The position numbers and the translations under genes were made by a program. A stretch of 64,000 nucleotides of DNA, taken from assembly GCA_964016885.1 (NCBI GenBank), contig OZ024750.1:44082001-44146000 (forward strand), in the 5' to 3' direction. Position 1 is the first letter of the stretch. Each line of letters opens with the position of its first letter. Positions 1,877 to 61,188 of this stretch are shown here, piece after piece. Below the pieces are notes generated by a model. It saw only the letters and a list, made by a program, of their open reading frames with translations, was not told where the DNA came from and made no database searches. Source of the DNA: Eledone cirrhosa. Lineage: Eukaryota.

Positions 1877-2084
1877 GGGTATGACATTAAACTACATCCA
1901 GTGGCAAGGCTCCAGTTCGGGAGTTCAGGAGATGTGGGGAATGTGGAGTTACCCCTTAGTTGTCATGACTCCCAGGTCTGCCCTGGCCCGGGGTGGTAGT
2001 ACCTGTTAGGGCTCCATTTATGGGTTAAATAACTACCTTATTCGAGTGGCGCCGGTAAGGTATTGTCAGCCATTGAAAAGAAAT

Positions 2085-3569
2085 ATGGAGAGTCGATCTA
2101 ACAGCACTAGGGTTAGAGCCCCTAATTACACTGTCAAGGAGCAGCCTGGTCGTTATGATTCTGCTTGCTTAGAGCCACAGAGAGGGCCAGTGGATGATGG
2201 ATCAGCTGTCTCTGAGACAAATATAAAGAATGCAGTTTTGTCCTGCAGAAGCGCCATCAAAATGGGCACTTTGAATGTGAGGACTATTCGAACGCTGGAG
2301 AAGAGAGAGGAGTTGGGACATCTGTTCGAGGAGAGTGGTATACAGATACTTGCGATCCAAGAACACAGGATTCTACACGATGAGCCCGTGAGGAGTGTGA
2401 TGATCGGGAGGAAGAGCCAGCTCATCACTACATCGGCAATGAAGAACACAACAAATGCTGCAGTAGGAGGAGTGGGTTTTGTGTTCAGTGCAAAAACCAA
2501 TCTGTTGGTGAGGGAAATAATGCCTATCTCCCCGCGAGTGTTGAGGGTGACCTTCAATGGAAACCCAAGACTGACAGTCATCTCAGCCTATAGTCCAACT
2601 GAGGGGGACAGTGATGTGAATGCCGAGGAGTTCCATGAGGAGGTGTGTAGAGCTGTCAACACCACTCAGGCACACAATATCCTGCTTGTTTTGGGGGACT
2701 TCAATGCACATCTGTGTAAGGAGGGCAGTGAAGATCCTTGCTGGTACTTCCATAACAACACCAACCGAAATGGAAGACTACTGAGAGACACCCTGCTGGA
2801 GGCGAACTTGATGGCGACCAACCTAAGGTTTAGGAAGAATCTGGGGAAGATGTGGACCTACATCTCAGATATGCACCTGTCCAAGTCCCATATTGATTTC
2901 ATTCTGGTGAGGAAAAAGTGGCGGAATAGTGTTCTGAACACGGAACCATACAGCTATTTCAGTACACTGGGTAGTGACCACCGGCTTGTTATGAGTGAGG
3001 TCCGCGTTAGCTTAAGAAAGAGCAAGGCTCAGCCCCGGAGAACAATCTATGACTGGGGAGCTTTCAAGGAAGATGATAAGCTACAGGAGAGGTTCACAGT
3101 GGAAGTGAGAAACAGGTTTAGTGCTCTGTGTGGAGAGTCAGAGGAGAGAAAGATTGGATGGACTGAGGAGAGTGTGACGAGGAGGTACGGGCACTTCACC
3201 AATGCAGTGGCGAAAGCAAGTGAAACCCTGGTGCCGAGGAAAAAGAACAAAGGGAAGCACGTCAGCTCTGCAAACCCAAAAGTGTGTGCAGCCAGAGAAC
3301 ACCTGAAAGCTGCCAGGGACCAATTCTATGCTGATCCTACGGAGGAGAGGATGGAGACTGTGGGGGTGATGAGGGAAAAGCTCTGTACCGCTTACACTGA
3401 GGTCAGAGAGGAAGCACTGATAGAGAAGATCAGAAGTGTGGAGAGAGCGGTTGACAGATCTGGATGTAAGGAGAGCTGGATGATCATCAACGAGATCACA
3501 GGGAGGAAGAAAAGATGTTCGAGTCAGATCCAGGGAACGGGCCCGAGGATAGGAAGAGGAAATGGCTAG
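2085..3569 (+). CDS. APE-type endonuclease half of RTE ORF (first ATG at 2085; frameshifted near 3545)
   Basis: Motifs GTLNVRT, LAIQEHR, SAYSPT, LGDFNAH, HIDFIL and GSDHRLV. Confidence 0.88.
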   Translation: MESRSNSTRVRAPNYTVKEQPGRYDSACLEPQRGPVDDGSAVSETNIKNAVLSCRSAIKMGTLNVRTIRTLEKREELGHLFEESGIQILAIQEHRILHDEPVRSVMIGRKSQLITTSAMKNTTNAAVGGVGFVFSAKTNLLVREIMPISPRVLRVTFNGNPRLTVISAYSPTEGDSDVNAEEFHEEVCRAVNTTQAHNILLVLGDFNAHLCKEGSEDPCWYFHNNTNRNGRLLRDTLLEANLMATNLRFRKNLGKMWTYISDMHLSKSHIDFILVRKKWRNSVLNTEPYSYFSTLGSDHRLVMSEVRVSLRKSKAQPRRTIYDWGAFKEDDKLQERFTVEVRNRFSALCGESEERKIGWTEESVTRRYGHFTNAVAKASETLVPRKKNKGKHVSSANPKVCAAREHLKAARDQFYADPTEERMETVGVMREKLCTAYTEVREEALIEKIRSVERAVDRSGCKESWMIINEITGRKKRCSSQIQGTGPRIGRGNG

Positions 3570-5178
3570 ACCATTTTAGGACCCTACTAGGAGAGCCACC
3601 CTCCACAGCCCAGAGCACTGGGGAGATCAGGCGGCTGTTTGGGGAACTGGATGTTGAGACAGAGCCCTTCACCAGAGAGGAGCTTCAGAGAGCCAAGAAG
3701 AAGATCAAGGAGGGCAAGGCTCATGGAGAAGATGGAGTGGCATCAGAGGTGATGAAGAGGTGTGATTTTGATGATATCATCCTGGGGTTCTGTAACGGGG
3801 CACTGGAGAAAGGAGTTGCCCCGAATCAGTGGAGGATCAGTAACATCGTCCCAGTGCCAAAGAAGGGAGATCTCTCTAACACCAACAACTACCGGGGGAT
3901 CTTACTGACGTCACTTGTGGCAAAGACCCTCAACAGGATGATTCTTAACAGGATCCAGCCTGAGATGGAGAAGAAGCTCAGGGACAACCAGAACGGCTTC
4001 AGAGAGGGTAGATCAACCACCAGTCACATCCTGATGCTGAGGAGGATATTAGAGGGAGCTAGAGCAAAGTGCCTTCCTGCGGTCATGGTTTTCATTGACT
4101 TTAGGAAGGCCTTTGATTCTGTGGACCGTTACTGCCTGATGAAGATCTTACAGGCTTATGGAATCCCCAAGAGGATAGTGGACCTGATATCACTGCTCTA
4201 CACCAACACCAAAGCCCAAGTCATTACACCTGATGGGAGAACAGAGTTCTTTGAGATACTGGCTGGAGTGCTCCAGGGAGATACATTGGCTCCCTACCTT
4301 TTTATCATCGTAGTGGACTATTGTATGCGCCTTGCACTGGAGAAACACCAGGACTCTGGCTTTACTGTAGCACCGGCTCAGAGCAGGAGAGTTGGGGTGA
4401 AAAAGGTATCGGATGCTGAATTTGCCGACGACATAGTTTTGGTGACAAATACAGTGAAGGTGGCAGAGGATTTGATGCGGGAGGTTGAGACTGTGTCGAT
4501 GAGTGTGGGGCTGAGAATGAATGAGACTAAAACAAAATATCTGGTAGAGAATGTTGAGAAGCCAGAGGGGATCACTAATATAGGCGGGAAGCCGCTGGAA
4601 TTGGTTGAGGACTTCCTGTATTTGGGAGCAAAGATTGGGAATACGGAAGTTGATGTGGTTGAAAGGAAGAGCAAGGCCTGGGCGGCGTGTCACAGCTTGG
4701 GATCGGTGTGGAAGTCGGACCTTCGTAGAGACCTGAAGGTCCGCCTCTTCATTGCTGTAGTGGAGTCTGTGCTGCTGTGTGGGTCTGAGACTTGGACACT
4801 GACCAAGAGACTCACTCAGATGGTGGATGGGTGCTACACGAGAATGCTGAGGATGGCTCTGAACATTAATCAGTATACACTGAGGATGAAAAACTCAGAG
4901 CTGTATGGGAGCATCCCAAAAGTCAGCTCAAAAGTGACACAGAGAAGACTGAGGTTGGCTGGTCATGCTCACCGACATCCAGAGTTGACATTGCACTCAG
5001 TGCTCCTTTGGGAGCCCCTACATGGACACACTAGAAGAGGAAGACCAAGGTTAACATATGTTGATGCCCTAAGGACAGACACTGGTCTGTTGGAGATGCA
5101 GGATATGGCAGCGATAATGAGGGACAGAGACCGCTGGAGAGAACTCGTCCATGGATCTCGGGAATTTTACCCGCCTTA

Positions 5179-5179
<1 letters not shown>
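3515..5179 (+). CDS. Reverse transcriptase half of RTE ORF
   Basis: Motifs [46 protein letters not shown] and FLYLG. RTE-type C-terminus GSETW...RGRP...DRDRWRELV. Confidence 0.92.
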
Positions 5180-5754: not shown

Positions 5755-8700
5755 AGGGATAAGGAGAGGGGAATTGAGGAAGGCGTATAGAGGAACAATT
5801 GACCTCAGTATTAGACTGGTACTATATATATAGAGAGAGAGAGATAGAGAGAGGGAGAGGAAATGAGGAAGGGGTATAGAGGAACAATTGACCTCAGTAT
5901 TAGACTGGTACTATATATATATATAGAGAGAGAGATATAGAGAGGGAGAGGAAATGAGGAAGGCGTATAGAGGAACAATTGACCTCAGTATTAGACTGGT
6001 ACTATATATATATATATAGAGAGAGAGAGATAGAGAGAGGGAGAGGAAATGAGGAAGAGGTATAGAGGAACAATTGACCTCAGTAGTAGACTGGTACTAT
6101 ATATATATATAGAGAGAGAGAGAGATAGAGAGAGGGAGAGGAAATGAGGAAGGCGTATAGAGGAACAATTGACCTCAGTATTAGACTGGTACTATATATA
6201 TATATATAGAGAGAGAGAGATAGAGAGAGGGAGAGGAAATGAGGAAGGGGTATAGAGGAACAATTGACCTCAGTATTAGACTGGTACTATATATATATAT
6301 AGAGAGAGAGATAGAGAGAGGGAGAGGAAATGAGGAAGGGGTATAGAGGAACAATTGACCTCAGTAGTAGACTGGTACTATATATATATAGAGAGAGAGA
6401 GATAGAGAGAGGGAGAGGAAATGAGGAAGGGGTATAGAGGAACAATTGACCTCAGTAGTAGACTGGTACTATATATATATAGAGAGAGAGAGATAGAGAG
6501 AGGGAGAGGAAATGAGGAAGGGGTATAGAGGAACAATTGACCTCAGTAGTAGACTGGTACTATATATATATAGAGAGAGAGAGATAGAGAGAGGGAGAGG
6601 AAATGAGGAAGGGGTATAGAGGAACAATTGACCTCAGTAGTAGACTGGTACTATATATATATAGAGAGAGAGATATAGAGAGGGAGAGGAAATGAGGAAG
6701 GGTATAGAGGAACAATTGACCTCAGTAGTAGACTGGTACTATATATATATAGAGAGAGAGATAGAGAGAGGGAGAGGAAATGAGGAAGGGTATAGAGGAA
6801 CAATTGACCTCAGTAGTAGACTGGTACTATATATATATAGAGAGAGAGATAGAGAGAGGGAGAGGAAATGAGGAAGGGGTATAGAGGAACAATTGACCTC
6901 AGTAGTAGACTGGTACTATATATATATAGAGAGAGAGATAGAGAGAGGGAGAGGAAATGAGGAAGGGGTATAGGGGAACAATTGACCTCAGTAGTAGACT
7001 GGTACTATATATATATAGAGAGAGAGATAGAGAGAGGGAGAGGAAATGAGGAAGGGGTATAGGGGAACAATTGACCTCAGTAGTAGACTGGTACTATATA
7101 TATATAGAGAGAGAGATAGAGAGAGGGAGAGGAAATGAGGAAGGGGTATAGGGGAACAATTGACCTCAGTAGTAGACTGGTACTATATATATATAGAGAG
7201 AGAGATAGAGAGAGGGAGAGGAAATGAGGAAGGGGTATAGAGGAACAATTGACCTCAGTAGTAGACTGGTACTATATATATATAGAGAGAGAGATAGAGA
7301 GAGGGAGAGGAAATGAGGAAGGGGTATAGGGGAACAATTGACCTCAGTAGTAGACTGGTACTATATATATATAGAGAGAGAGATAGAGAGAGGGAGAGGA
7401 AATGAGGAAGGGGTATAGAGGAACAATTGACCTCAGTAGTAGACTGGTACTATATATATATAGAGAGAGAGATAGAGAGAGGGAGAGGAAATGAGGAAGG
7501 GGTATAGGGGAACAATTGACCTCAGTAGTAGACTGGTACTATATATATATAGAGAGAGAGATAGAGAGAGGGAGAGGAAATGAGGAAGGGGTATAGGGGA
7601 ACAATTGACCTCAGTAGTAGACTGGTACTATATATATAGAGAGAGAGAGATAGAGAGAGGGAGAGGAAATGAGGAAGGGGTATAGGGGAACAATTGACCT
7701 CAGTAGTAGACTGGTACTATATATATATAGAGAGAGAGATAGAGAGAGGGAGAGGAAATGAGGAAGGGGTATAGAGGAACAATTGACCTCAGTAGTAGAC
7801 TGGTACTATATATATATAGAGAGAGAGATAGAGAGAGGGAGAGGAAATGAGGAAGGGGTATAGGGGAACAATTGACCTCAGTAGTAGACTGGTACTATAT
7901 ATATATAGAGAGAGAGATAGAGAGAGGGAGAGGAAATGAGGAAGGGGTATAGAGGAACAATTGACCTCAGTAGTAGACTGGTACTATATATATATAGAGA
8001 GAGAGATAGAGAGAGGGAGAGGAAATGAGGAAGGGGTATAGGGGAACAATTGACCTCAGTAGTAGACTGGTACTATATATATATAGAGAGAGAGATAGAG
8101 AGAGGGAGAGGAAATGAGGAAGGGGTATAGGGGAACAATTGACCTCAGTAGTAGACTGGTACTATATATATATATAGAGAGAGATAGAGAGAGGGAGAGG
8201 AAATGAGGAAGGGGTATAGAGGAACAATTGACCTCAGTAGTAGACTGGTACTATATATATATAGAGAGAGAGATAGAGAGAGGGAGAGGAAATGAGGAAG
8301 GGGTATAGGGGAACAATTGACCTCAGTAGTAGACTGGTACTATATATATATAGAGAGAGAGATAGAGAGAGGGAGAGGAAATGAGGAAGGGGTATAGGGG
8401 AACAATTGACCTCAGTAGTAGACTGGTACTATATATATATATAGAGAGAGATAGAGAGAGGGAGAGGAAATGAGGAAGGGGTATAGAGGAACAATTGACC
8501 TCAGTAGTAGACTGGTACTATATATATATAGAGAGAGAGATAGAGAGAGGGAGAGGAAATGAGGAAGGGGTATAGAGGAACAATTGACCTCAGTAGTAGA
8601 CTGGTACTATATATATATAGAGAGAGAGATAGAGAGAGGGAGAGGAAATGAGGAAGGGGTATAGAGGAACAATTGACCTCAGTAGTAGACTGGTACTATA

Positions 8701-10724
8701 TATATATAGAGAGAGAGATATAGAGAGGGAGAGGAAATGAGGAAGGGGTATAGAGGAACAATTGACCTCAGTAGTAGACTGGTACTATATATATATAGAG
8801 AGAGAGATAGAGAGAGGGAGAGGAAATGAGGAAGGGGTATAGAGGAACAATTGACCTCAGTAGTAGACTGGTACTATATATATAGAGAGAGAGAGATAGA
8901 GAGAGGGAGAGGAAATGAGGAAGGGGTATAGAGGAACAATTGACCTCAGTAGTAGACTGGTACTATATATATATAGAGAGAGAGATAGAGAGAGGGAGAG
9001 GAAATGAGGAAGGGGTATAGAGGAACAATTGACCTCAGTAGTAGACTGGTACTATATATATATAGAGAGAGAGATAGAGAGAGGGAGAGGAAATGAGGAA
9101 GGGGTATAGAGGAACAATTGACCTCAGTAGTAGACTGGTACTATATATATAGAGAGAGAGATAGAGAGAGGGAGAGGAAATGAGGAAGGGGTATAGGGGA
9201 ACAATTGACCTCAGTAGTAGACTGGTACTATATATATATAGAGAGGGAGATAGAGAGAGGGAGAGGAAATGAGGAAGGGGTATAGAGGAACAATTGACCT
9301 CAGTAGTAGACTGGTACTATATATATATATAGAGAGAGATAGAGAGAGGGAGAGGAAATGAGGAAGGGGTATAGAGGAACAATTGACCTCAGTAGTAGAC
9401 TGGTACTATATATATATAGAGAGAGAGATAGAGAGAGGGAGAGGAAATGAGGAAGGGGTATAGAGGAACAATTGACCTCAGTAGTAGACTGGTACTATAT
9501 ATATATAGAGAGAGAGATATAGAGAGGGAGAGGAAATGAGGAAGGGGTATAGAGGAACAATTGACCTCAGTAGTAGACTGGTACTATATATATATAGAGA
9601 GAGAGATAGAGAGAGGGAGAGGAAATGAGGAAGGGGTATAGAGGAACAATTGACCTCAGTAGTAGACTGGTACTATATATATAGAGAGAGAGAGATAGAG
9701 AGAGGGAGAGGAAATGAGGAAGGGGTATAGAGGAACAATTGACCTCAGTAGTAGACTGGTACTATATATATATAGAGAGAGAGATAGAGAGAGGGAGAGG
9801 AAATGAGGAAGGGGTATAGAGGAACAATTGACCTCAGTAGTAGACTGGTACTATATATATAGAGAGAGAGATAGAGAGAGGGAGAGGAAATGAGGAAGGG
9901 GTATAGAGGGAACAATTGACCTCAGTAGTAGACTGGTACTATATATATATAGAGAGAGAGATAGAGAGAGGGAGAGGAAATGAGGAAGGGGTATAGAGGA
10001 ACAATTGACCTCAGTAGTAGACTGGTACTATATATATATAGAGAGAGAGATAGAGAGAGGGAGAGGAAATGAGGAAGGGGTATAGAGGAACAATTGACCT
10101 CAGTAGTAGACTGGTACTATATATATATAGAGAGAGAGATAGAGAGAGGGAGAGGAAATGAGGAAGGGGTATAGGGGAACAATTGACCTCAGTAGTAGAC
10201 TGGTACTATATATATATAGAGAGAGAGATAGAGAGAGGGAGAGGAAATGAGGAAGGGGTATAGAGGAACAATTGACCTCAGTAGTAGACTGGTACTATAT
10301 ATATATAGAGAGAGAGATAGAGAGAGGGAGAGGAAATGAGGAAGGGGTATAGAGGAACAATTGACCTCAGTAGTAGACTGGTACTATATATATAGAGAGA
10401 GAGATAGAGAGAGGGAGAGGAAATGAGGAAGGGGTATAGAGGAACAATTGACCTCAGTAGTAGACTGGTACTATATATATATAGAGAGAGATAGAGAGAG
10501 GGAGAGGAAATGAGGAAGGGGTATAGAGGAACAATTGACGTCAGTAGTAGACTGGTACTATATATATATAGAGAGAGAGATAGAGAGAGGGAGAGGAAAT
10601 GAGGAAGGGGTATAGGGGAACAATTGACCTCAGTAGTAGACTGGTACTATATATATATAGAGAGAGAGATAGAGAGAGGGAGAGGAAATGAGGAAGGGGT
10701 ATAGGGGAACAATTGACCTCAGTA
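5755..10724. repeat. Tandem satellite with a unit of about 90 bp, roughly 55 copies
   Basis: Unit GAGGGAGAGGAAATGAGGAAGGGGTATAGAGGAACAATTGACCTCAGTAGTAGACTGGTAC(TA)n(GA)nTA(GA)n. Confidence 0.97.
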
Positions 10725-11385: not shown

Positions 11386-11564
11386 AACGAAGGAAATGTG
11401 GTAAGGAACAAGATGGACCATAACGCACCAAAGTACTCAATACTTAGGGTAGTAGAGTGGGTAATAGGAACGAGTAGGACCCCGACGGCTGAGCTCAAGC
11501 CGTTTGGACGGGCTAATTCTATCGAAACTGCTTGAGCTCAGCCATCGGGGTCCTACTCGTTCCT
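11386..11564 (+). mobile_element. Short (TA)n-embedded fold-back element, family B (copies at 21896-22090 reverse, 29741-29798 partial, 58389-58582)
   Basis: Shared AACGAA...GTAAGGAAC..GATGGACCATAAC...AGTACTCAATA head followed by a terminal hairpin of about 100 nt. Confidence 0.88.
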
Positions 11565-11797
11565 ATATATATATATATATATGTGTGTTTGTGGTGTGGT
11601 GTGTGTGTGTGTGGCTGTGGGTATGTGTGTGTGCGTGCGTGGGGTCTGTGTGTGTGTGTGTGTGTATAGCATGTGTATATGAAAAATATGGGGCTGGTCT
11701 AAGTATATACATGTTAATGATTTGTGTAATTTTGGGGTAACTGTGTATATATGTAAATATGTACTGGGTGTCAAACTTAATTGTAATTCACACACAA

Positions 11798-13962: not shown

Positions 13963-14067
13963 ATGTATGTATGTATGTAATGTATGTATGTATGTATGTA
14001 TGTATGTATGTATATAGGTAAGTTTGTCTATTTGTATGTATGTATTTATGCATGTATGTACGTATGC

Positions 14068-14267
14068 NNNNNNNNNNNNNNNNNNNNNNNNNNNNNNNNN
14101 NNNNNNNNNNNNNNNNNNNNNNNNNNNNNNNNNNNNNNNNNNNNNNNNNNNNNNNNNNNNNNNNNNNNNNNNNNNNNNNNNNNNNNNNNNNNNNNNNNNN
14201 NNNNNNNNNNNNNNNNNNNNNNNNNNNNNNNNNNNNNNNNNNNNNNNNNNNNNNNNNNNNNNNNNNN
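14068..14267. other. Assembly gap (200 N)
   Basis: Run of n. Confidence 1.
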
Positions 14268-16046
14268 GAGGCGCAGACATGCGCCATTCCCGACAGATCC
14301 ATCCACGACAACCTCCACCTCATGCGATACATCGTAGAGTGGGTAGCTAGGGAACCTGGCACGGGTGGGTCCTTGATCAATTTAGATCAGTCGAAAGCTT
14401 TCGATAGGGTCGACCATCGTTACCTAGCGGCAGTCCTGAGGGCGGCTGGCTTTGGGCCCGTCTTCAGAGGCTGGATCGCTGCCATGCACAGCGACATCTG
14501 CTCTGTGGTGAGAGTGAACGGTCACCTGTCGGAACCGTTCAACATCATGCGCTCGGTCCGCCAAGGATGTCCCCTCTCGTCCCTCTTGTACGTATTGACG
14601 CTCGAGCCATTACTGCACAAACTGGAGACGTTGAGGGGAGTCCCGCGCGAACTAGGATGCGGAAGATCCGTGTCAGCATATGCGGACGATGTCACCGTAG
14701 TGGTGTCGAACGCCAAACACATCGAGGCGATCGGCACTACACTAAGAGAATACGAAGCGGTGACAGGAGCAATGATCAACCAGGAAAAGTCAGTGGGCCT
14801 GCAGCTCGGCACCTGGAGAGGCAGGTCCATGCCGTCCAACAGCGTTGTCGGGCGCTGGACGGACGGACCGGTTAAATTGCTAGGGGTCTGGTTCGGTCCG
14901 GACCTCCAGACGGACAAAAACTGGGACGAGGTGACGAGCAGGGTGGCTTCTCTCACCCAGAAATGGGCGGAGAGGAAGCTATCCCTGAAAGGTCGAGCGG
15001 AGGTGGCTAACGCGTACATCGCGTCTGTCATCTGCTACCGCCTAACCGTCGTACCTTGTCCTAAGCCTCGCCTGACTGCGCTGGAGCGTTTGCTCTTTCG
15101 CTTTTTGTGGAAGGGATGTGCTCCGATGGTCAGGCGGTCCATCTGTTGTCAACACCCGCTACGTGGAGGGCTGGGCATGCCGTGGCTGATGATGCGCAGG
15201 CACGCGCTCAGGCTACGACATCTCCACCTCTTCCTCGACGGTGATCAGGTGTGGTCGCCGTTTGCTAGACGAGTTTTTCCCCAGCTCGTTTCCTTGACGG
15301 AGCTGCAGTCCTGGGTCAAGCGAAGACCGAGAGGGAGCGCCTGGAGACTGGAATGTCTTCAGGCGCTCACAGCCCTCGACCAATCGGGCAATGTGATCGG
15401 TGGAAACTCCACCTCGGCGTTCTATAGAGGATTAGTGGAGGGGAAGAGCGACGACGTACTTGGGGAAACTCTAGGCGTCGACGAAAATCAACTAGCCAAT
15501 CTCTTCGGAAGAACTTTCGGACCAGGGCCTATGGACAACTTCCAGAAATCTCTGGCCTGGCAGTGCTACCGAGGAGCCTTGCCAGTTCGGGATAAACTCT
15601 ACAGGCATGGAGGTGCCGTCAGCCGGGCATGTCCGAGATGCGCGCAGGGCGACGAAACCGTCCTGCACGCACTCGTCCAGTGTCCGAAAATTGCTGATTT
15701 GTGGGTTTATGTCGAACACCTGCTGTCGCGTTTAGGACGGATCCAGCTATCATCTGAGTCTATCGTGAGGATTGCCCCGCCCTCCTCCTTTAGCCGGGAA
15801 GGGCAGGCAGTTTTTATCTGTCTGGTGGCCATGGCGAAAGAGATAGTATGGTGGACACGTTTGAAAGGGCTGAAGACGAGCACTTACCTCTTCGGTGATG
15901 CTCTGATTGACTTTTTCAAATTTCATTTGAAAAGGAAAATCAGAGTAGAGAAGGAAGTGCTCTCTTCCCAGCATTTTGTTGAAAGATGGATGAGAGAAGC
16001 AAGAATGGCCCGAGTGAATGGGCCGACTCTGAGTATATATCTGTAA
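14268..16046 (+). CDS. Tx1/L1-clade LINE ORF2, RT plus C-terminal CCHC; 5' part lost in the gap
   Basis: Motifs LDQSKAFDRV, VRQGCPLS, YADD, KLLGV and CPRC..ETVLHALVQC. The 3' UTR has AATAAA near 16296 and runs into (ATT)n. Confidence 0.93.
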   Translation, partial: EAQTCAIPDRSIHDNLHLMRYIVEWVAREPGTGGSLINLDQSKAFDRVDHRYLAAVLRAAGFGPVFRGWIAAMHSDICSVVRVNGHLSEPFNIMRSVRQGCPLSSLLYVLTLEPLLHKLETLRGVPRELGCGRSVSAYADDVTVVVSNAKHIEAIGTTLREYEAVTGAMINQEKSVGLQLGTWRGRSMPSNSVVGRWTDGPVKLLGVWFGPDLQTDKNWDEVTSRVASLTQKWAERKLSLKGRAEVANAYIASVICYRLTVVPCPKPRLTALERLLFRFLWKGCAPMVRRSICCQHPLRGGLGMPWLMMRRHALRLRHLHLFLDGDQVWSPFARRVFPQLVSLTELQSWVKRRPRGSAWRLECLQALTALDQSGNVIGGNSTSAFYRGLVEGKSDDVLGETLGVDENQLANLFGRTFGPGPMDNFQKSLAWQCYRGALPVRDKLYRHGGAVSRACPRCAQGDETVLHALVQCPKIADLWVYVEHLLSRLGRIQLSSESIVRIAPPSSFSREGQAVFICLVAMAKEIVWWTRLKGLKTSTYLFGDALIDFFKFHLKRKIRVEKEVLSSQHFVERWMREARMARVNGPTLSIYL

Positions 16047-21865: not shown

Positions 21866-21898
<33 letters not shown>

Positions 21899-22092
21899 AA
21901 AAAGTATGACCCCGACGGCAGAGCTCAAGCCGTTTCGACGGCATTTCTGGAGTCCAGAAATAGCCATCGAAACGGCTTGAGCTCTGCCATCGGGGTCATA
22001 CATTTTCCTATTACCCACTCTATTACACTAAGTATTGAGTACTCTGGTGCGTTATGGTCCATCTGGTTCCTTACCACAATTCCTTCGTTATA

Positions 22093-37976: not shown

Positions 37977-40900
37977 GTGCCTTTTCTCTTCACCACCAAC
38001 ATGGCTATGCTAAGAGTAGGCTGTTTAAATGCGCGTGGCCTGGGCTCAACTTGGAAGCAAGCAATGCTTCTAAATGACCTCAGGTCACAACGTATAGATG
38101 TGATGGTTATTTGCGAGGCCCGGATCAGCAACGTGCGACAGCTGGCCCCCACCTTTGATGACTTTGAGATGCACGCATCTCTCTGTCAGCCCGGAGGTGG
38201 GGGTGGAGTTGTCGTTCTGCTGCAAAAACATCTGGGTCTCGCAACACAGATGGTACATTTGGACCCGGAGGGTCGACTAGTGGTTCTGGACCTTGGCAGT
38301 GGTAAAGGCGGAGCGTTTAGGTTGGTAGCCGCCTACGGCCCTTTCGGGTCAATGCGGCCGGACTTCTTCCATCGTCTGGAGACTTTTCTGGGGACGTCCC
38401 GCTCCTTGCTATTAGTGGGGGACTGGAATGGTATCCTAGATGCACGCTGGGACTACGTAGGGGCCTGCCCCGATAGAGAGGGGTGTAATAGCCTCAAAGG
38501 GTTAATCGGTCGATTTGACCTGGCCGATAGATATCGACTAGATTTTCCGACTGCGCCAACCTGGACTTGGGCAAATCGTAGCGGATCATCTAGGTCGTAC
38601 CTAGATAGGTTCTTAGTTAGAATTAAGGATAAGGACTTTTTAAGTTGTCCAAAAATGCGCATGGTTGGCTATTCAGACCACAAATTAGTGACCTGCATGG
38701 TCAACCTTGACAGAACTCATAGACAGGGCCCCGGTTACTGGAAGCTCAACTTGTCCTTGCCGGCAAGTAGAGCCTACAGGAATCGGATTAGTACGTTAGT
38801 TAAGGAACGGTTGACTGGAGCGATCGTCAACAGCAGGTGGTGGGTATCTCTAAAGAGAGAGATTAGAGTAGTCTCGATAGAATTTAGTAAGGTTCTAGCT
38901 GCGGATAGGAATAGGAAGGAAAGGGAGCTAATAGATAGAGTAGAAGAGGCAATTAGAAGCGGCGACGTGGCCAGAGCGCTAGCGTCGAGAACGGCTTTGA
39001 GCCAGTTTTTCGACGCGAAGCACGAAGGCTGCGTTGTCCGAAGTAAAATACGTGCTCTAGGGAACGAGGGGACCAAAGCTGTTAGCTGGGCCCGCGTGAC
39101 AGAGGCCAACAGTGGAACTAAATCCACCATCCGGTCTTTGCGAGACCTGGATGGACGGGCGATTCTTGAGCCTAAGCAGATGTGTGAGGCCTTTCAAAGG
39201 CACTTTGCCCGACTGTTCGGGAGGGGCGGGGAGCCGGTTGGGAACGTGGACTTCGGTCCATACCTCGACGGCCTGCCGCGCCTCTCGGACAGGGAGGCGA
39301 AGTCCTGCGAGGAGCCGATTTCGGCCGCTGAGATAGAGGACGTGCTGAGCCAATGCGGCAAACGCAAATCCCCGGGTCTCGATGGTCTTCCTTACGAATT
39401 ATATCTAGCTATGCCGGACTTGTTCCCCGATCTCCTCGAGGCGGTCTACTGCAACTGGCAACAGAATGGGAGAATTCCCTGTACTGTGACCAAGGGCGTA
39501 GTCACGCTAGTGAGGAAGGACGAGAACAAGGGGGACGAAATAAGTAACTTCAGGCCCATAACTCTGCTAAATACAGAGTTACAGATTTTGGCCAAGGTGC
39601 TAGCAAAGAGGTTGGCGCTTGTCGTGGGCAACCTGGTGGGAGATGCGCAGACATGCGCTATCCCGTCCAGGTCCATCCATGACAACCTCCACCTCATGCG
39701 ATACATCATAGAGAGGGTTGGGAACGAACCCGGCTTTGGTGGGGCTCTGATCAACTTGGATCAATCTAAGGCGTTCGATAGGGTCGACCATGGTTACCTG
39801 GATGCGGTGCTAGCGGCGGCAGGCTTCGGACCCGTTTTCAGGGGCTGGATCACTGCTATGCACAGCAGCCGCATCTGCTCTAGGGTCAAGGTGAACGGCT
39901 ACCTCTCGGAGCCGTTCAAAATCGCGCGGTCCATCCGACAGGGGTGCCCTCTCTCCTCCCTTCTGTATGTGTTGACTCTCGAGCCACTACTGCGGAAGTT
40001 GGAGTTGTTGCAGGGCATCCCTTTGGAACCGGGATTGCGGAAAGCGGTGTCGGCCTACGCCGATGACGTGACAGTAATGGTGTCGACGGCCTCCGAAATC
40101 GAGGCGGTCGGCACCTTACTGAAGGAGTACGAAAAGTTCACAGGGGCTAAGCTGAACCGGGACAAGTCGATCGGTTTGCAACTCGGCACGTGGAGGGGCA
40201 GACCGATGCCCTCCGATGGCGTCGTCGGACGCTGGACGGAGGGCCCGGTGAAGTTGCTCGGGGTCTGGTTCGGACCGGACCTCCAGGTGGAGAAAAACTG
40301 GGCGGAGGTTACGAACAGGGTGTTTGCACTGACCAAGAAGTGGGCCAGTTGCAAACTATCCCTGAAAGGTCGGGCGGAGGTGGCGAACACCTACATAGCG
40401 TCCGTCATCTACTACCGCCTGACCGTAGTGCCCTGCCCAAGGGAAACCCTCACCAAGATGGAGCGCGCGCTCTTCCAATTCCTTTGGAAGAGGCGGGCTC
40501 CTATGGTGAGGAGATCCATCTGCTGTCAACACCCTTCGAAAGGAGGGCTGGGGATGCCGTGGCTAATGATGCGTAAACACGCATTAAGGCTACGGCACCT
40601 CTACGTATTCCTCACCGGACAACCGGTGTGGGCCTCGTTTGTGAGGCGAACCTTTCCCAGACTCGTCTCACTCACCGAGCTGCAATCCTGGGTCAAGCAA
40701 AGACCGAGAAAACTGGGCGCCTGGCACACTGAGTGTGCCCAGGCGCTCACCGCCCTCTGGCAGGCGGATCCGGTTATCAGTGGAGACTCCACCGCAACAT
40801 TCTATAGAGGGCTGGTACGCAGCAGGTGCGACGACGCCCTCGGAGAAGCCCTAGACATGGAGGAGGACGAACTGGCCAGCCTGTTCGGTAGGACATTCAG

Positions 40901-41438
40901 CCCGGGACCTATGGACAACTTCCAGAAGTCCCTGGCCTGGCAGTGCTACCGAGGGGCTTTACCCGTTCGAGAAAGGCTCTACAGACACGGGCGCCCGGGT
41001 AGGGACCCCGCCAAAAAGATCTGTCCCAGATGCGTGTGCGACGAGGAAACCGTTGCACACGCATTGGTACACTGCTCGGGCGTAGCCGATCTGTGGGGCT
41101 ATGTCGAACAACTGCTGTCAAGGGTGGAACCGATCCGGTTGACCACCGAGTCTATTGTAATGATCAAGCCGCCTCCCCCCTTCAAAGATGAAGCAGAGGC
41201 GGTGTTTCTGTGCGTAATAGCCATGGCGAAAGAGGTTGTATGGTGGACGCGTCTGAAAGGACTGAGGTCAGGCACCTTTCTCTCTGGCCAACAACTGGTC
41301 CGTTTCTTCCGATATCATTTCGGAAGAAGGATCAGGATGGAGAGAGAGGTGCTGCACCCCAGCCGTTTCTATGAAAGATGGGTGAAAGTGGCGAGAATGG
41401 CCCGTGTGAATGGGCCTTCACTCTACATCAGACTATAG
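37977..41438 (+). CDS. Tx1/L1-clade LINE ORF2, intact (APE endonuclease, RT, CCHC); first ATG at 38001
   Basis: Motifs GCLNARGL, ICEAR, VGDWN, YLDRF, YSDH, YWKLN, KSPGLDG, FRPITLLN, KAFDRV, RQGCPLS, YADD and CPRC..ETVAHALVHC. No stops over 1153 codons. Confidence 0.96.
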   Translation: MPFLFTTNMAMLRVGCLNARGLGSTWKQAMLLNDLRSQRIDVMVICEARISNVRQLAPTFDDFEMHASLCQPGGGGGVVVLLQKHLGLATQMVHLDPEGRLVVLDLGSGKGGAFRLVAAYGPFGSMRPDFFHRLETFLGTSRSLLLVGDWNGILDARWDYVGACPDREGCNSLKGLIGRFDLADRYRLDFPTAPTWTWANRSGSSRSYLDRFLVRIKDKDFLSCPKMRMVGYSDHKLVTCMVNLDRTHRQGPGYWKLNLSLPASRAYRNRISTLVKERLTGAIVNSRWWVSLKREIRVVSIEFSKVLAADRNRKERELIDRVEEAIRSGDVARALASRTALSQFFDAKHEGCVVRSKIRALGNEGTKAVSWARVTEANSGTKSTIRSLRDLDGRAILEPKQMCEAFQRHFARLFGRGGEPVGNVDFGPYLDGLPRLSDREAKSCEEPISAAEIEDVLSQCGKRKSPGLDGLPYELYLAMPDLFPDLLEAVYCNWQQNGRIPCTVTKGVVTLVRKDENKGDEISNFRPITLLNTELQILAKVLAKRLALVVGNLVGDAQTCAIPSRSIHDNLHLMRYIIERVGNEPGFGGALINLDQSKAFDRVDHGYLDAVLAAAGFGPVFRGWITAMHSSRICSRVKVNGYLSEPFKIARSIRQGCPLSSLLYVLTLEPLLRKLELLQGIPLEPGLRKAVSAYADDVTVMVSTASEIEAVGTLLKEYEKFTGAKLNRDKSIGLQLGTWRGRPMPSDGVVGRWTEGPVKLLGVWFGPDLQVEKNWAEVTNRVFALTKKWASCKLSLKGRAEVANTYIASVIYYRLTVVPCPRETLTKMERALFQFLWKRRAPMVRRSICCQHPSKGGLGMPWLMMRKHALRLRHLYVFLTGQPVWASFVRRTFPRLVSLTELQSWVKQRPRKLGAWHTECAQALTALWQADPVISGDSTATFYRGLVRSRCDDALGEALDMEEDELASLFGRTFSPGPMDNFQKSLAWQCYRGALPVRERLYRHGRPGRDPAKKICPRCVCDEETVAHALVHCSGVADLWGYVEQLLSRVEPIRLTTESIVMIKPPPPFKDEAEAVFLCVIAMAKEVVWWTRLKGLRSGTFLSGQQLVRFFRYHFGRRIRMEREVLHPSRFYERWVKVARMARVNGPSLYIRL

Positions 41439-51405: not shown

Positions 51406-51952
51406 CATATATACATATATATATACATGTATATATATACACACATACACACACATAAAATATATAAAAATTAAGAATTTAAAAAAAATGATAACTCGCA
51501 AAAATCATGTATTATCAAAGATGGAAGCATTTGAAAGATCTAGAGACAAAATGGTTGCCATCAAGTTTCCGGTTAGAAGACGGCTCCAGGAAACAACATA
51601 GCTGGTTTATATTTTTATAGAAGGCCTGTCGTCCGGCTCGTTCAGTTTGGTTTGCTTTTGTCATGTTACTAATAATTATAGAGAAAATGGTGGAGACATA
51701 TATATATACCACATTTATTTGAGATGTAATAGTTATTGAGGCGGTCTGTATATAATTTATTTTATTTTATGTATATTCCGTTTGCTTCTGATTAAATTTC
51801 TCAAACAAATGTGGTATTTCAACCCTCGTAAATTTAGACACACGATTTACTGTGTTTATTACTACATATATTATTGAAATGCTCAGTATTTATACTTTGA
51901 GCTTGTTAATAACAGGGTATCAGTATGAATTATTAACTCTGGCTTTTATTGG

Positions 51953-54089: not shown

Positions 54090-54535
54090 CAGGAGGACAT
54101 GATATGAAGGCTAAAAAACACTTGTGGATAGTTCAGTTTTAAATCAACATATATATAAGTATATATATATTGCACACGGTACCATAACAGAACTGTTTCA
54201 TCATTCATTTGTTCTCATTCTGAGGCAGTTTTGAATGGCGCAAGTTGGTAATTTTAACTCGGGAATTTAATATTCTCCGAGAGAGAAAAGCCTTCTGACG
54301 ATGATCTCTTTTTCAATAGAAATTCACTTGGATTATCTATTTTTTGCTGATTTTTTGCTGATCTGAAACCTCGGTTTGCATATGTTTGCATATCGAAGAC
54401 TTCTCCTTTCGTTTACCTTTCATCCTTATGGGGTCGATGAAATAAAATAGCAGTAATACACTGGGATAATTGGTGGCCTTGCACCAAATGTAGAAACAAT
54501 TTATATATACATATATATGTATATATTTATACATG

Positions 54536-54586: not shown

Positions 54587-54666
<80 letters not shown>

Positions 54667-54793
54667 GTGAGGTCTTTTTTACAAAATGAAAAATAACCGA
54701 AGTGTCCTACACGAGTTAATGTATAAGGAAAACAGATGAAATCGAAAATGCAACTGGAGTCTTTTTTTTTTTAAATATATATTTATTTGGTTC

Positions 54794-54829
54794 CTTTACC
54801 GGTTTCGCAGTTCTTCTGCTTTTCAAAAG
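54794..54829 (-). ncRNA. Minimal hammerhead motif, U3-A8 core variant
   Basis: Minus strand CUU-UUGAAAA-GCAG aagaa CUGC-GAAAC cg GUA-AAG. Palindromic ACCGGU in stem III. Confidence 0.68.
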
Positions 54830-55074
54830 TAGAATTGAGATGGAGGGTTTGTCGTTTTCCTCACGCGTAAGAAAAACCCCAAACCCAAATAAATATATAT
54901 TTAAAAAAAAGAAGACTCCAGTTGCATTTTCGATTTCATATTTTTTCCCTAAGGTAACACACTAGAGAGAGAGTGTGCCATCAATAAAACAGGGAAAACC
55001 ACCAGTGTATGGAATCTATACTCTATCGAAGGCAGGGTAGGCACACAATGTATATACGCTATAACTATATTACA

Positions 55075-55155
55075 CACACGTACACATCTAAAGAGATCTG
55101 TTTCGCCAGGAGGTAGTTGACTGAAATGGAATACCCTATGGCTCTTTACCGCGTG
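55075..55155 (-). ncRNA. Hammerhead motif with long stem II, decayed core
   Basis: Minus strand CACGCG-GUAAAGA-GCCA...UGGC-GAAACA...UGUA-CGUGUG. Homologue of 60528-60605. Confidence 0.6.
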
Positions 55156-57182
55156 CAAGACAATTCTAAAAGAATATAAAGCGACCGTCTAGCTACACGC
55201 GGCAGAGAAATGTCACAGCGTATTTAGGGCAGTGAACCAGTGGTGTCTGGGGGACGAGCTGCTAGAAAGGGCAGCCCAAAACCATTCAGAGAAGTGTGCT
55301 CAACCAAACAGAGAGAGAGGAAAGACTGTTATAAGGAGTGAAATATCACAGCGAATAGACTCTCGTTATTCCCTGTCAATAATATGCTCAAAGGAGAAGG
55401 AATCCTGAGCTCTTTAAAATACAATATGTTGAAAAGGTAACACACTAGAGAGAGAGTGTGCCATCAATAAAACAGGGAAAACCACCAGTGAATGGAATCT
55501 ATACTCTATGGAAAGCAGGGTAGACACACAATAATTAAAAATATAAATTAAAATGTATATAGGCACCTCTATAACTATATAACACACGCGTACACATCCA
55601 AAGAGATCTGGGGTGTCGTTGATATAGGTTGTACCTAGCTTACTAGTCCAAAGGCACAGTAGCAATTGTAGCAAAAGCTAAGGAGACAGATAAAGGAAAC
55701 ATCAGCGCTCGTCAGTAAGAAAGTGAGATTAATGTGCTGGTGAGTTGTTATCAATCAGCTGGATGTTGTGTGGGAAAACTTACATATCTTAGAATCCTCT
55801 TTCTTATGAATCTGTTAATTAAATAAGATATGTTAGAGTATAATTAGATAGCAATGTTCCCCAAATAAAGAAATCTGTTTTGAGAACATAAATAAAGATG
55901 AATATTTTAGTTGATTCCAATGTGTTGGTAGAGTAAAGACTACATTAAATATACTACTAAAAATGATAGCAGAATCAAATGTCCTCATCACAGATATTTT
56001 GGACAAGCTAGAGGCTAACAGGAACAAAATAAGAAAGCAAATATGATTTTGACTGTGTTATACGTAAGCAAAATTAGGTTCGTGAGAAATTAGAGGGGTT
56101 CTCCTGACTGGAAAAAATAAAATAAATGTGAACAATAAAAGTCAGTTTTCAGAAGGGGAAAAGAGCAACCCCCCCCCCCCCCCAAAAAAAAAACAGAAAG
56201 AAAACAACACCATACAAAACAATAAGTCAAAATGTTCGAAGCTTTCAGCACTGTCATCAAGCAGAATAAGATGAAAATATCTATAAAACATGCTGCATGC
56301 ACTTAAGGAATTTGTCGCTAGAAGCGTCTTTCTTTCGTTGTAAGAATCCTGGTTGGATAGAGAAAAATGTTGATTATCCAATCAAATTCTTTGATGTCAT
56401 TTGACGGCCACAAAACATGGATGACACGTAACTTAGGGCAAAGAGATAGCAAGATTGGTGATAATCTCTATATTTGTTCAGCTAATGACGGTGATAAGAT
56501 AGCTGGTTCCATTTGTTATGATATTTATTTTACATTTTAAAGTAGACCTAACAACAGGCACCAGAGAACATTGCCTAAGGTACTAGCAAGTCAACGCTGA
56601 TTCCAACAGAACATTTGTTTTTTTGTTGTTAATTTTTTGAGTTCGCCATTTTTTTCTTCTTCTCTTGCTTATAACTATGATGGCTCTAGATATCTATGTT
56701 AAATAATATAAGTGAAACCGAAGAAAATTAGATATAATCTATTAGTTGTCATACTAGCAGCTATACGATTTCAGTGACAATCATGAAAATAATGAATAAC
56801 AAATAAACGGTTATGCTAATTCTAGCTTGTTATAAAGCGTTGTCTTCCAGTTGATTAGTGTATAGCAGGTTTTTAATAACTCTTTGATTCGAAGTAGGTA
56901 ACTGATAGAAAAAAACAAACAAATAAACAAAAACGCAAACAAAAATTAAACAAAAACAAAAAGCAATATGGCTGATAATTAATATTTTTCTAGACTAATC
57001 TGACTAAAAGCGTATGACAGCATCTTTATAATAACGCGTGTGAATATTGTTTCGTACGAGTTACAGCCTCTATAGTGAAGAAGAAAAATATTAAATAAAA
57101 TATAATTTAACAAAAAATAAACACAACATGAAACAACTAATTACATGTTGGCAATTTATTCTCTCTCGTGATTATTACTGGT

Positions 57183-58345: not shown

Positions 58346-58579
58346 CAATTATATATATATATATATACACACACATATATATATATATAACGAACGAAGT
58401 TTTGTAAGGAACGAGATGGACCATAACCGACCAGAGTACTCAATATTTAGAGTAGTAGAGTGGGTAATAGGAATAATGTTTGACCCCGACGGCAGAACTC
58501 AAGCCGTCTCGACGGCTATTTCTGGACTGAAATAGCCCTCGAAACAGCTTGAGGTCTGCCGTCGGGGTCAAACATTTTT

Positions 58580-58680
<101 letters not shown>

Positions 58681-59723: not shown

Positions 59724-60304
59724 TTTAAAAAATAGAGGTGTAACACACGAGTTGTAATATATTAGTAAAAGGAAAAGAAAATGCTGACAAATTTTTCCCA
59801 CTGAAAAATAGTTTAATTAGGAATAAGTATAAATTAGTAATAAGTATTGGTTAGTATTCAGTTTTAGTTTTAAGTTTATACCGGTTGCGCATTTCTTATG
59901 CTTTTCAAAAATAATTTTGAGATAGAGCGCCTGTGATATTTGCCCTAATCTGGAGCAAACATCACGGGCGCTCTATCTCAAAATTATTTTTGAAAAGCAT
60001 TAGAAATGCGCAACCGGTATAAACTTAAATCTAAAACTGAATACTAACCAATACTTATTACTAATTTATACTTATTCCTAATTAAACTATTTATCACTGG
60101 GAAAAATTTGTCAGCATTTTCTTTTCCTTTTACTAATATACATATAAATAAATTAACCGAGTCATAAACTCGCGTTACTCCCTGTAAATTATAAGCTCAA
60201 AGGAAAAATAATCCTGGGCTCTTCAAATATAATATGTAGAAAAGATAATACACGACAGAGAGAGAGAGTAAAGAGAGAGAGAGAGCGAGAGAGAGAGAGA
60301 GAGA

Positions 60305-60390
<86 letters not shown>

Positions 60391-60527
60391 GTGTGAGTGT
60401 GTGTTTATCAATGTATAGGGAAACCCACCAGTGTATGGAATCTATAAACTACGAAAAGTGAGGGAGACGCATAATAATTTAAAATATAAATAAGAATGAA
60501 TTTACCCACCTTTATAACTATATATCA

Positions 60528-60605
60528 CACAAGTACAAACCCAAAGAGATTTGTTTCGCCAAGAGTTAGTGAACGCAATGAATCACCCAGGTTCATCAGC
60601 GTGTG
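60528..60605 (-). ncRNA. Hammerhead motif with intact core and long stem II
   Basis: Minus strand CACACG-CUGAUGA-aCCuGG..GUGA..UCAC..CUuGGc-GAAACAAA...UUUGUA-CUUGUG. Confidence 0.7.
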
Positions 60606-60806
60606 GTAAGTGAATACATTCCAGACAATTCCAAGAGAACTTAAGATAAATGCCTTGCAACACATGGTAGAGAGAAGGTAATGTGTGCAAGCGGCACTAA
60701 ACCAGTGGCCTGGGGGGGGTGGGGGGGTTAGAAATCGCAGCCCCAAACAACTCAAATAAGGCTGCTCTACTAAAGAGAGAGAGCGAGAGAGAGAGAGAGA
60801 GAGAGA

Positions 60807-60876
<70 letters not shown>

Positions 60877-60927
60877 AGACTGTTAGGAGCAATGAGCAAA
60901 CATCACGGACGCTCTATCTCAAAATTA

Positions 60928-60964
60928 TTTTTGAAAAGCATTTAGAAATGCGCAACCGGTAAAA
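60928..60964 (+). ncRNA. Minimal hammerhead-like motif with UUGAAAA/GCAA core (also + at 59987-60022 and - at 59876-59911)
   Basis: UUU-UUGAAAA-GCAU uuagaa AUGC-GCAAC cg GUA-AAA. Homologous to 54794-54829 with a compensatory change in stem II. Confidence 0.58.
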
Positions 60965-61111
60965 CTTAAAACCAAAATTGAATACTAACCAATAGAATTA
61001 CTAATTCTCATTTACTCCTAATTAAACTATTTTTCACTGTGAACAATTTGTCAGCATCTTCTATTCCGTTTACCAATATATAATAACTTGTGTGTTACAC
61101 CTCTATTCTTT

Positions 61112-61188
<77 letters not shown>

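Follow-up and report, generated by a model that had tools for sequence, protein, structure and literature searches.

Penelope-type elements (PLEs) have been described as inserting in the form of partial tandems; at the 5' end there is often a further copy, inverted and 5'-truncated, the tail measures 30–40 bp, and their bias towards (TA)n is reported to hide target duplications (Craig et al., PMC8557442). The supplement of the same paper records, for two species of Octopus, Naiads that target (TA)n. The account of Penelope gives an identical layout plus a repeat of 34–37 bp (Schostak et al., PMC2377424). According to Frangieh et al. (PMC11167929), both strands of AT-rich DNA are nicked by a PLE protein, which initiates reverse transcription at a pair of internal positions marking the limits of the tail; the purified protein inserts uncleaved RNA, ribozyme cleavage being dispensable in vitro. 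A minimal, dimer-type hammerhead is described as typical of PLE terminal repeats, with a U3-A8 variant in Schistosoma, and opposite-strand minimal hammerheads 100–700 bp apart were noted for PLEs in 2014 (PMC4209133), when Cervera and de la Pena also proposed a circular template for PLE tandems (PMC4209133). Non-LTR retrozymes are reported as tandem non-coding units with type I hammerheads (PMC7229834; 10.64898/2026.07.22.740005), expressed as circular RNAs in coral, mussel and axolotl (Cervera and de la Pena, 2020; PMC7229834). PLEs are thought to move the animal retrozymes, on the basis of co-occurrence and terminal-repeat similarity (PMC7229834; 10.64898/2026.07.22.740005), and an active retrozyme is defined by two complete ribozymes in consecutive units (Li et al., 2026; 10.64898/2026.07.22.740005). 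Ribozymes in both polarities, finally, are given as the mark of the Avsunviroidae. Excerpts of these sources, and of PMC6431247, PMC8969392 and PMC6765202, served for the comparison that follows.

The locus described here is a decayed, non-coding Penelope-type element of a known kind that joins two different self-cutting RNA motifs, ribozymes A and B. It occupies positions 54661–55610 (E1) of a 64-kb window, the whole stretch of DNA that was analysed, which consists of AT-rich animal repeat DNA rich in microsatellites. A sister element lies at 59724–61113 (E2), and the two are diverged members of one family whose shared unit is 74–83% identical. Their homology, claimed in an earlier note on this DNA, is borne out by three blastn segments: 55474–55610 against 60417–60553 (E 2.5e-32, 81%), 55355–55456 against 60164–60264 (E 4e-23, 82%) and 55060–55317 against 60513–60783 (E 7e-14). 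Over three segments of the shared unit, 84/101, 111/137 and 151/203 aligned bases are identical. The two shared motifs that the note had quoted do occur in the window only at 54992/60418 and 55090/60543, the first having an additional copy with one mismatch at 55475. Neither blastn nor nhmmer found a third family copy in the 64-kb window, a weak 62-nt match at 51859–51920 being the sole further trace.

At its left end E1 abuts a (TA)n microsatellite (54600–54660), the probable insertion target. The single-copy end that follows (54661–54723, minus strand) consists of 28 extra nucleotides and a tail of about 35 nt (54689–54723), compared with a tail of 34 nt in E2. The tails are homologous, since only 1/2000 shuffles reached the score of the E1 tail against 59724–59800; against the right E2 tail alone the match is not significant (133/2000). 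Read on the minus strand, this end of E1 is a PLE-type 3' tail. Next comes a fold-back (54724–54951), with arms at 54724–54790 and 54885–54951 that are complementary at 63/67 positions and enclose a loop of 94 nt. Inside it, a weaker palindrome with its centre near 54868 suggests that the right arm has lost an antisense copy of ribozyme A. The plus-strand order of E1 is an inverted tail and A, a direct A remnant without ribozyme, and 1.3 B units. E2 consists of an inverted tail and A (59724–59943), a direct A without tail (59955–60140), a B unit with (GA)n expansions (about 60158–60910) and, at the right end, A and tail (60894–61113). In both elements, then, a tail within the 30–40 bp described for PLE derivatives stands at one or both ends and is missing from the inner copy. 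Moreover, the hairpins of E1 and E2 end at corresponding positions to within about 4 nt; given that the tails are also homologous, we regard the end structure as shared by descent. The (TA)n tract contacts E1 at the left, tail end only, and flanks E2 on both sides. No target duplication was found at E1, the longest match between its flanks being 5 nt; its right end, which lacks both (TA)n and a duplication, could be the product of a later deletion. By eye, the middle A of E2 (59971–60157, minus) starts with GT and ends with AG on the B-sense strand, and A could in principle be spliced out there, with a poor 3' site.

Ribozyme A of E1 (54791–54832, minus strand; motif 54826–54797, cut after 54797) is, as predicted from its motif, an intact minimal type I hammerhead. 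Its core has no mismatch if a U3-A8 pair is allowed, helix II has 4 bp and is closed by G10.1-C11.1, helix III is palindromic and helix I is paired at 4/6 positions. The earlier note had placed it in the left fold-back; it does lie within the fold-back of E1, in the 94-nt loop rather than in an arm. In E2 all three copies of A carry A13C, with cut sites at 59879 (minus), 60019 (plus) and 60961 (plus). Within the end module, the region of ribozyme A is the one best conserved between the elements (40/49 identical), and the stretch between the A cut site and the tail could not be aligned (1916/2000 shuffles). One pair of helix II is altered on both sides between E1 and E2 (G-C/U-A), a compensatory change that is not beyond shuffles (123/500). 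In E1, A is unpaired in the loop and its core is intact, whereas the corresponding A of E2 is fully paired in the hairpin and carries A13C (n=2).

All three motifs of E1, namely A, B and a second copy B', lie on the minus strand. Ribozyme B (55075–55155, cut after 55081) is a type I hammerhead with a long helix III and a mutated core: helix I has 6 bp, helix II is long, helix III has 7 bp, and the core reads GUAAAGA, with C3G and G5A plus a change at the variable position 7. C3G has been reported to abolish hammerhead cleavage (PMC11167929). B of E2 (core 60599–60534, minus) has an intact core and G10.1 changed to A. Of B', only helix III, the GUA (55591) and, from helix I, the 3' strand remain, and there is no catalytic core. 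The earlier note had described two B ribozymes with different lesions, whose consensus restores a canonical hammerhead. The lesions do differ between B of E1 and B of E2, and these must be the pair in question because B' is coreless; with two copies, a consensus is a choice and not a majority. In isolation B of E1 folds into a three-way junction, which does not form in the fold of the whole E1. Across the three B sequences 88% of the cells are paired, and 0/18 pairs show compensatory changes.

The repeat within E1 consists of a first segment of 150 nt (54951–55100, plus strand) and a second of 177 nt (55434–55610), in which 142/150 aligned bases are identical; the first carries deletions of 22 and 5 nt relative to both the second and E2. 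The minus-strand GUA sites (H17 positions) at 55081 and 55591 are indeed 510 nt apart, as had been claimed earlier, while the two segments start 483 nt apart because the first copy lacks these 22 + 5 nt. The cut-to-cut unit (55081–55590, minus strand), a retrozyme-like monomer of 510 nt, is non-coding and has a GC content of 41%. That B is repeated in tandem without an intervening A holds for the direct junction between the units, but the repeat is partial (150/177 nt) and amounts to only about 1.3 units, since homology is lost beyond 55610, a point 19 nt upstream of the second cut site. E1 thus does end inside the second ribozyme copy. A continuation past this point was rejected, as 55611–55700 did not align with 55101–55200 (1807/2000 shuffles score as high). 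At the junction (55340–55360, plus strand) both ends of the E2 unit meet directly, within about 6 nt at 55349–55355, where E2 has module A; here module A was either added to the unit or lost from it. Because this junction coincides with the ends of the E2 modules, private slippage is an unlikely source of the tandem: it would demand breakpoints exactly at the borders of A.

Four hammerhead descriptors each matched one site in the 64-kb window, namely A of E1 (two descriptors), B of E2 and B of E1; matches arose in 0–1/2000 dinucleotide shuffles of either element and in none of 40 block-shuffled windows, counts that are optimistic because the descriptors were written after the motifs had been seen. 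Rfam gave no hammerhead match for E1 or E2 at E<=10 and none for the whole window among the 150 of 302 matches listed; the sub-threshold matches, only to hairpin-type miRNAs and similar, were discarded. A 22-nt motif had no match in prokaryote genomes. A 19-nt motif had 21, which are taken as chance since at 21/21 loci the match does not extend beyond the 30 nt around the motif. Eight short exact motifs from the window, mostly on one strand, had no relevant match in the Naiad/Chlamys supplement, including the octopus Naiad consensus. The minus-strand 510-nt circle of E1 folds with a z of -2.95 against 60 shuffles (plus strand -1.66), and the B unit of E2 with a z of -1.3 on the minus strand. 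A viroid-like rod was rejected for the A+B unit (z 0.01 and -0.17, 55–62% paired). E1 has no ORF of at least 120 aa, and therewith lacks the hallmark of an autonomous PLE, an ORF with a reverse transcriptase (RT) of telomerase-like type and a GIY-YIG endonuclease. Pfam searches of all six frames of 54951–55610 and of the right flank, with stops as X, gave no family at or near the cut-off, and no coding remnants were found in the unit or this flank.

Elsewhere in the window, Pfam matches of 4/11 ORFs were to LINE-type RT and/or AP-type endonuclease domains, and GIY-YIG was found in none. LINE-type ORFs lie at 2010–5179, 14022–16046 and 37977–41438, the last an open frame of 1153 aa with endonuclease, RT and zf-RVT domains; AP-type endonuclease is present in two window ORFs, and one LINE ORF has its best named match in the octopod Argonauta hians (68%), a single match from which an octopod host appears probable. 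A separate minimal hammerhead candidate at 29341–29369 (minus), within about 29221–29440, has an intact core, a palindromic helix III, a 5-bp helix I and a U-U at the base of helix II. A (TA)n tract lies about 120 nt downstream of its cut, in the same geometry as in A, and the candidate, which has no similarity to E1 or E2, may represent a 3' end from a different PLE family. A fold-back at 1234–1545 has arms that are 89% identical around a central (TA)n, each with a hammerhead-like motif with one core change (1468–1428, minus) that ends about 25 nt from the (TA)n. GC-rich hairpin elements of about 110 nt adjoin (TA)n at 58467–58584, 21894–22011 and 11464–11566 and have a common flank of about 70 nt, also found at 29732–29798. 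A SINE-like repeat of about 90–170 nt, which may resemble octopus SINEs, occurs at 54412–54500 and at least 17 other sites, and is partly tandem with a 172-nt period at 25903–26406. Finally, an 89-nt satellite of 55 copies (97% matches) fills 5766–10724.

From the anatomy, homology and ribozyme motifs of the elements, and from the absence of an ORF and of a target duplication, all observed directly, we infer mobilisation by a PLE, the strand and the 5' truncation: with a probability of about 0.6, E1 is a 5'-truncated copy of a non-autonomous, PLE-dependent retroelement made from a minus-strand source RNA, and E2 belongs to the same family. The earlier note was right in reading the element as copied through RNA. 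The source RNA would be the minus strand, with tandem 510-nt B units, a hairpin holding A and the tail of about 35 nt. A PLE endonuclease would nick the (TA)n tract, and the PLE reverse transcriptase would start at the tail, copy A and 1.3 B units, and halt inside the second B ribozyme. In E2, one B unit would have been joined by an opposed second end, as is typical of PLE insertions; this copy may have been primed from the other nick and joined via the short B-unit sequence that starts A. It speaks against this model, however, that E2 is more simply read as a plus-strand PLE copy: its fold-back arms start with about 11–15 nt of B-unit sequence, and at one point or another there must have been a chimeric template of plus polarity. 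A minus-strand template is the simplest reading of E1, whose ribozyme motifs are then all in sense. In favour of the minus-strand PLE-dependent copy we count the intact, unpaired A of E1 as opposed to the mutated, paired A of E2, and the contact of (TA)n with the tail end of E1 only, together with the agreement of layout and U3-A8 hammerhead with published PLE forms, the homology of tails and hairpin limits, the conservation of the A region, the minus-strand position of all three E1 motifs, the minus-strand circle of E1 folding better than its shuffles, the octopus PLEs that target (TA)n and the Argonauta hians match of a LINE ORF. Against it count the lack of an autonomous PLE partner among the window ORFs, the negative motif comparison with the Naiad/Chlamys supplement, the availability of only two copies, the absence of compensatory changes in B and the non-significance of the one in A, the weak fold signal of E2, the failure of B to form in the fold of the whole E1 and the lack of an Rfam hammerhead. 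The permuted partial tandem had earlier been taken to fit copying of a circular template. It is compatible with a circle but does not require one, and the idea itself is already published; partial tandems are also the normal form of a PLE insertion, and two copies cannot show permutation. A single permuted copy would look the same if a linear multimer had been copied with 5' truncation, or if a deletion had occurred later. The ends of the E2 unit abut within about 6 nt at the internal junction of E1, which suggests a single fixed boundary of the unit. If E1 did arise as a PLE-dependent minus-strand copy, we hold it somewhat less than evenly probable that its B part was read from a circle rather than from a linear multimer.

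The main rival is a plus-strand PLE derivative, in which the unit would be the 941-nt repeat of E2 that ends in A and tail, with B an antisense passenger from an older insertion. Taken alone, E2 is explained no less well as a plus-strand PLE copy: it has the textbook layout of an inverted truncated copy, a direct truncated copy without tail and a longer copy with tail, the junction from B unit to A is present in all three copies, and the left arms are 97% alike and 89–90% alike to the right copy, as for separate templates. PLE ribozymes are, furthermore, expected in sense to the tail. E1 would then be a damaged copy that lost A at its internal junction and whose right end was deleted, which requires a near-precise loss of A on top of a terminal deletion. 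Moreover, the B helices are kept in both elements (88% of cells paired), and the sequence upstream of A in E1 has no significant match to the end of the B unit (563 and 835/2000 shuffles). We therefore find this derivation, and with it the damaged-copy account of E1, rather unlikely.

Two further explanations fare worse. A private local duplication within a MITE-like fold-back DNA element, with ribozyme motifs that are chance or irrelevant, would suit the terminal inverted repeats of E2 in (TA)n, the restriction of the tandem to one locus and the other hairpin repeats in the window. Yet the positions brought together at the E1 junction are, with a tolerance of about 6 nt, those on either side of A in E2, the ribozyme motifs appear in 0–1/2000 shuffles, the tail lies outside both hairpins at homologous positions and no transposase-type duplication is seen, although (TA)n would mask a TA duplication; we consider it very improbable. 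That A and B are linked at two loci had likewise been offered as an argument against chance. Chance is rightly dismissed, but the linkage at both loci is inheritance from one ancestor and not two independent associations, since E1 and E2 share tail, hairpin limits and ribozymes by common descent. Alternatively, an ambisense viroid-like circle with A and B on opposite strands could have replicated from RNA to RNA before being reverse-transcribed into the genome. The repeat unit of E2 does carry A on the plus and B on the minus strand, different hammerheads of opposite polarity, as in the Avsunviroidae. However, the A+B unit is not a rod (z 0.01 and -0.17), the unit of E1 is without A, A is a minimal motif of the dimer type that goes with a PLE tail, and opposite-strand hammerhead pairs 100–700 bp apart are already known for PLEs, all of which makes the circle highly implausible. 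We give equally little credit to a circular RNA with two different hammerheads in opposite polarities, replicated from RNA to RNA in the manner of a viroid and written into a cephalopod genome by a PLE reverse transcriptase, as the origin of the family, with the 510-nt unit of E1 as its one-ribozyme deletion form.

A milder version, in which a circular retrozyme acquired the 3' end of a PLE, is likelier, if still doubtful. If true, it would give physical evidence for the way in which retrozymes are mobilised by PLEs: a cis signal for this mobilisation is not established in the texts examined, and it would be identified by a retrozyme-like unit in physical linkage with a ribozyme and tail of PLE type. 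As they stand, E1 and E2 are two decayed copies of a known element class, whose parts and layout are already known; the joining of the two ribozyme units is a modest twist. Neither the texts examined nor the listings and abstracts on octopus hammerheads, opposite-polarity genomic hammerheads, non-autonomous PLEs and Terminons reported a composite in which a long-helix-III hammerhead unit is combined with a minimal hammerhead and tail of PLE type.

Among known systems, the Avsunviroidae and other viroid-like circles resemble E2 only, whose unit is likewise shorter than a kilobase and has hammerheads on both of its strands. They are set apart by a rod-like fold combined with ribozymes in both polarities, whereas the A+B unit has a z of about 0 on both strands; the elements are genomic with PLE-type ends, and the unit of E1 is of one polarity. 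Non-LTR retrozymes are closer to the B unit, which is likewise non-coding and of GC below 50%, with a type I hammerhead and a length of 510 nt, within the reported family range of 51–972 bp, and which is arranged head-to-tail as far as 1.3 units can show; PLE mobilisation and circular intermediates have been proposed for retrozymes. The differences are that E1 has only 1.3 units with a truncated second ribozyme, that neither element has an intact B, that helix III of B has 7 bp rather than 1–2 bp, and that a hairpin and tail of PLE type, with a second ribozyme, adjoin the B unit. Of the two complete ribozymes in consecutive units that mark an active retrozyme, E1 has none, B carrying C3G and G5A and B' being coreless. 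From PLEs, E1 and E2 differ in having no RT/GIY-YIG ORF, in a body formed by a second, unrelated hammerhead unit, and in that the sequence following the inner A copy is not tail. With PLEs of the EN+ clades (Penelope/Poseidon, Neptune, Hydra, Naiad) they share the partial tandem, the inverted truncated copy, the tail of about 34 nt and the (TA)n flank, and A resembles the PLE ribozyme as a minimal type I motif with a palindromic helix III and a U3-A8 core about 70–120 nt upstream of the tail. A tandem or inverted copy, a tail, a minimal hammerhead near the 3' end and a microsatellite target without clear duplication, as expected of a non-autonomous PLE derivative, are all present: in E1 and E2 a unit of retrozyme-like character is fused with a 3' end of PLE type.
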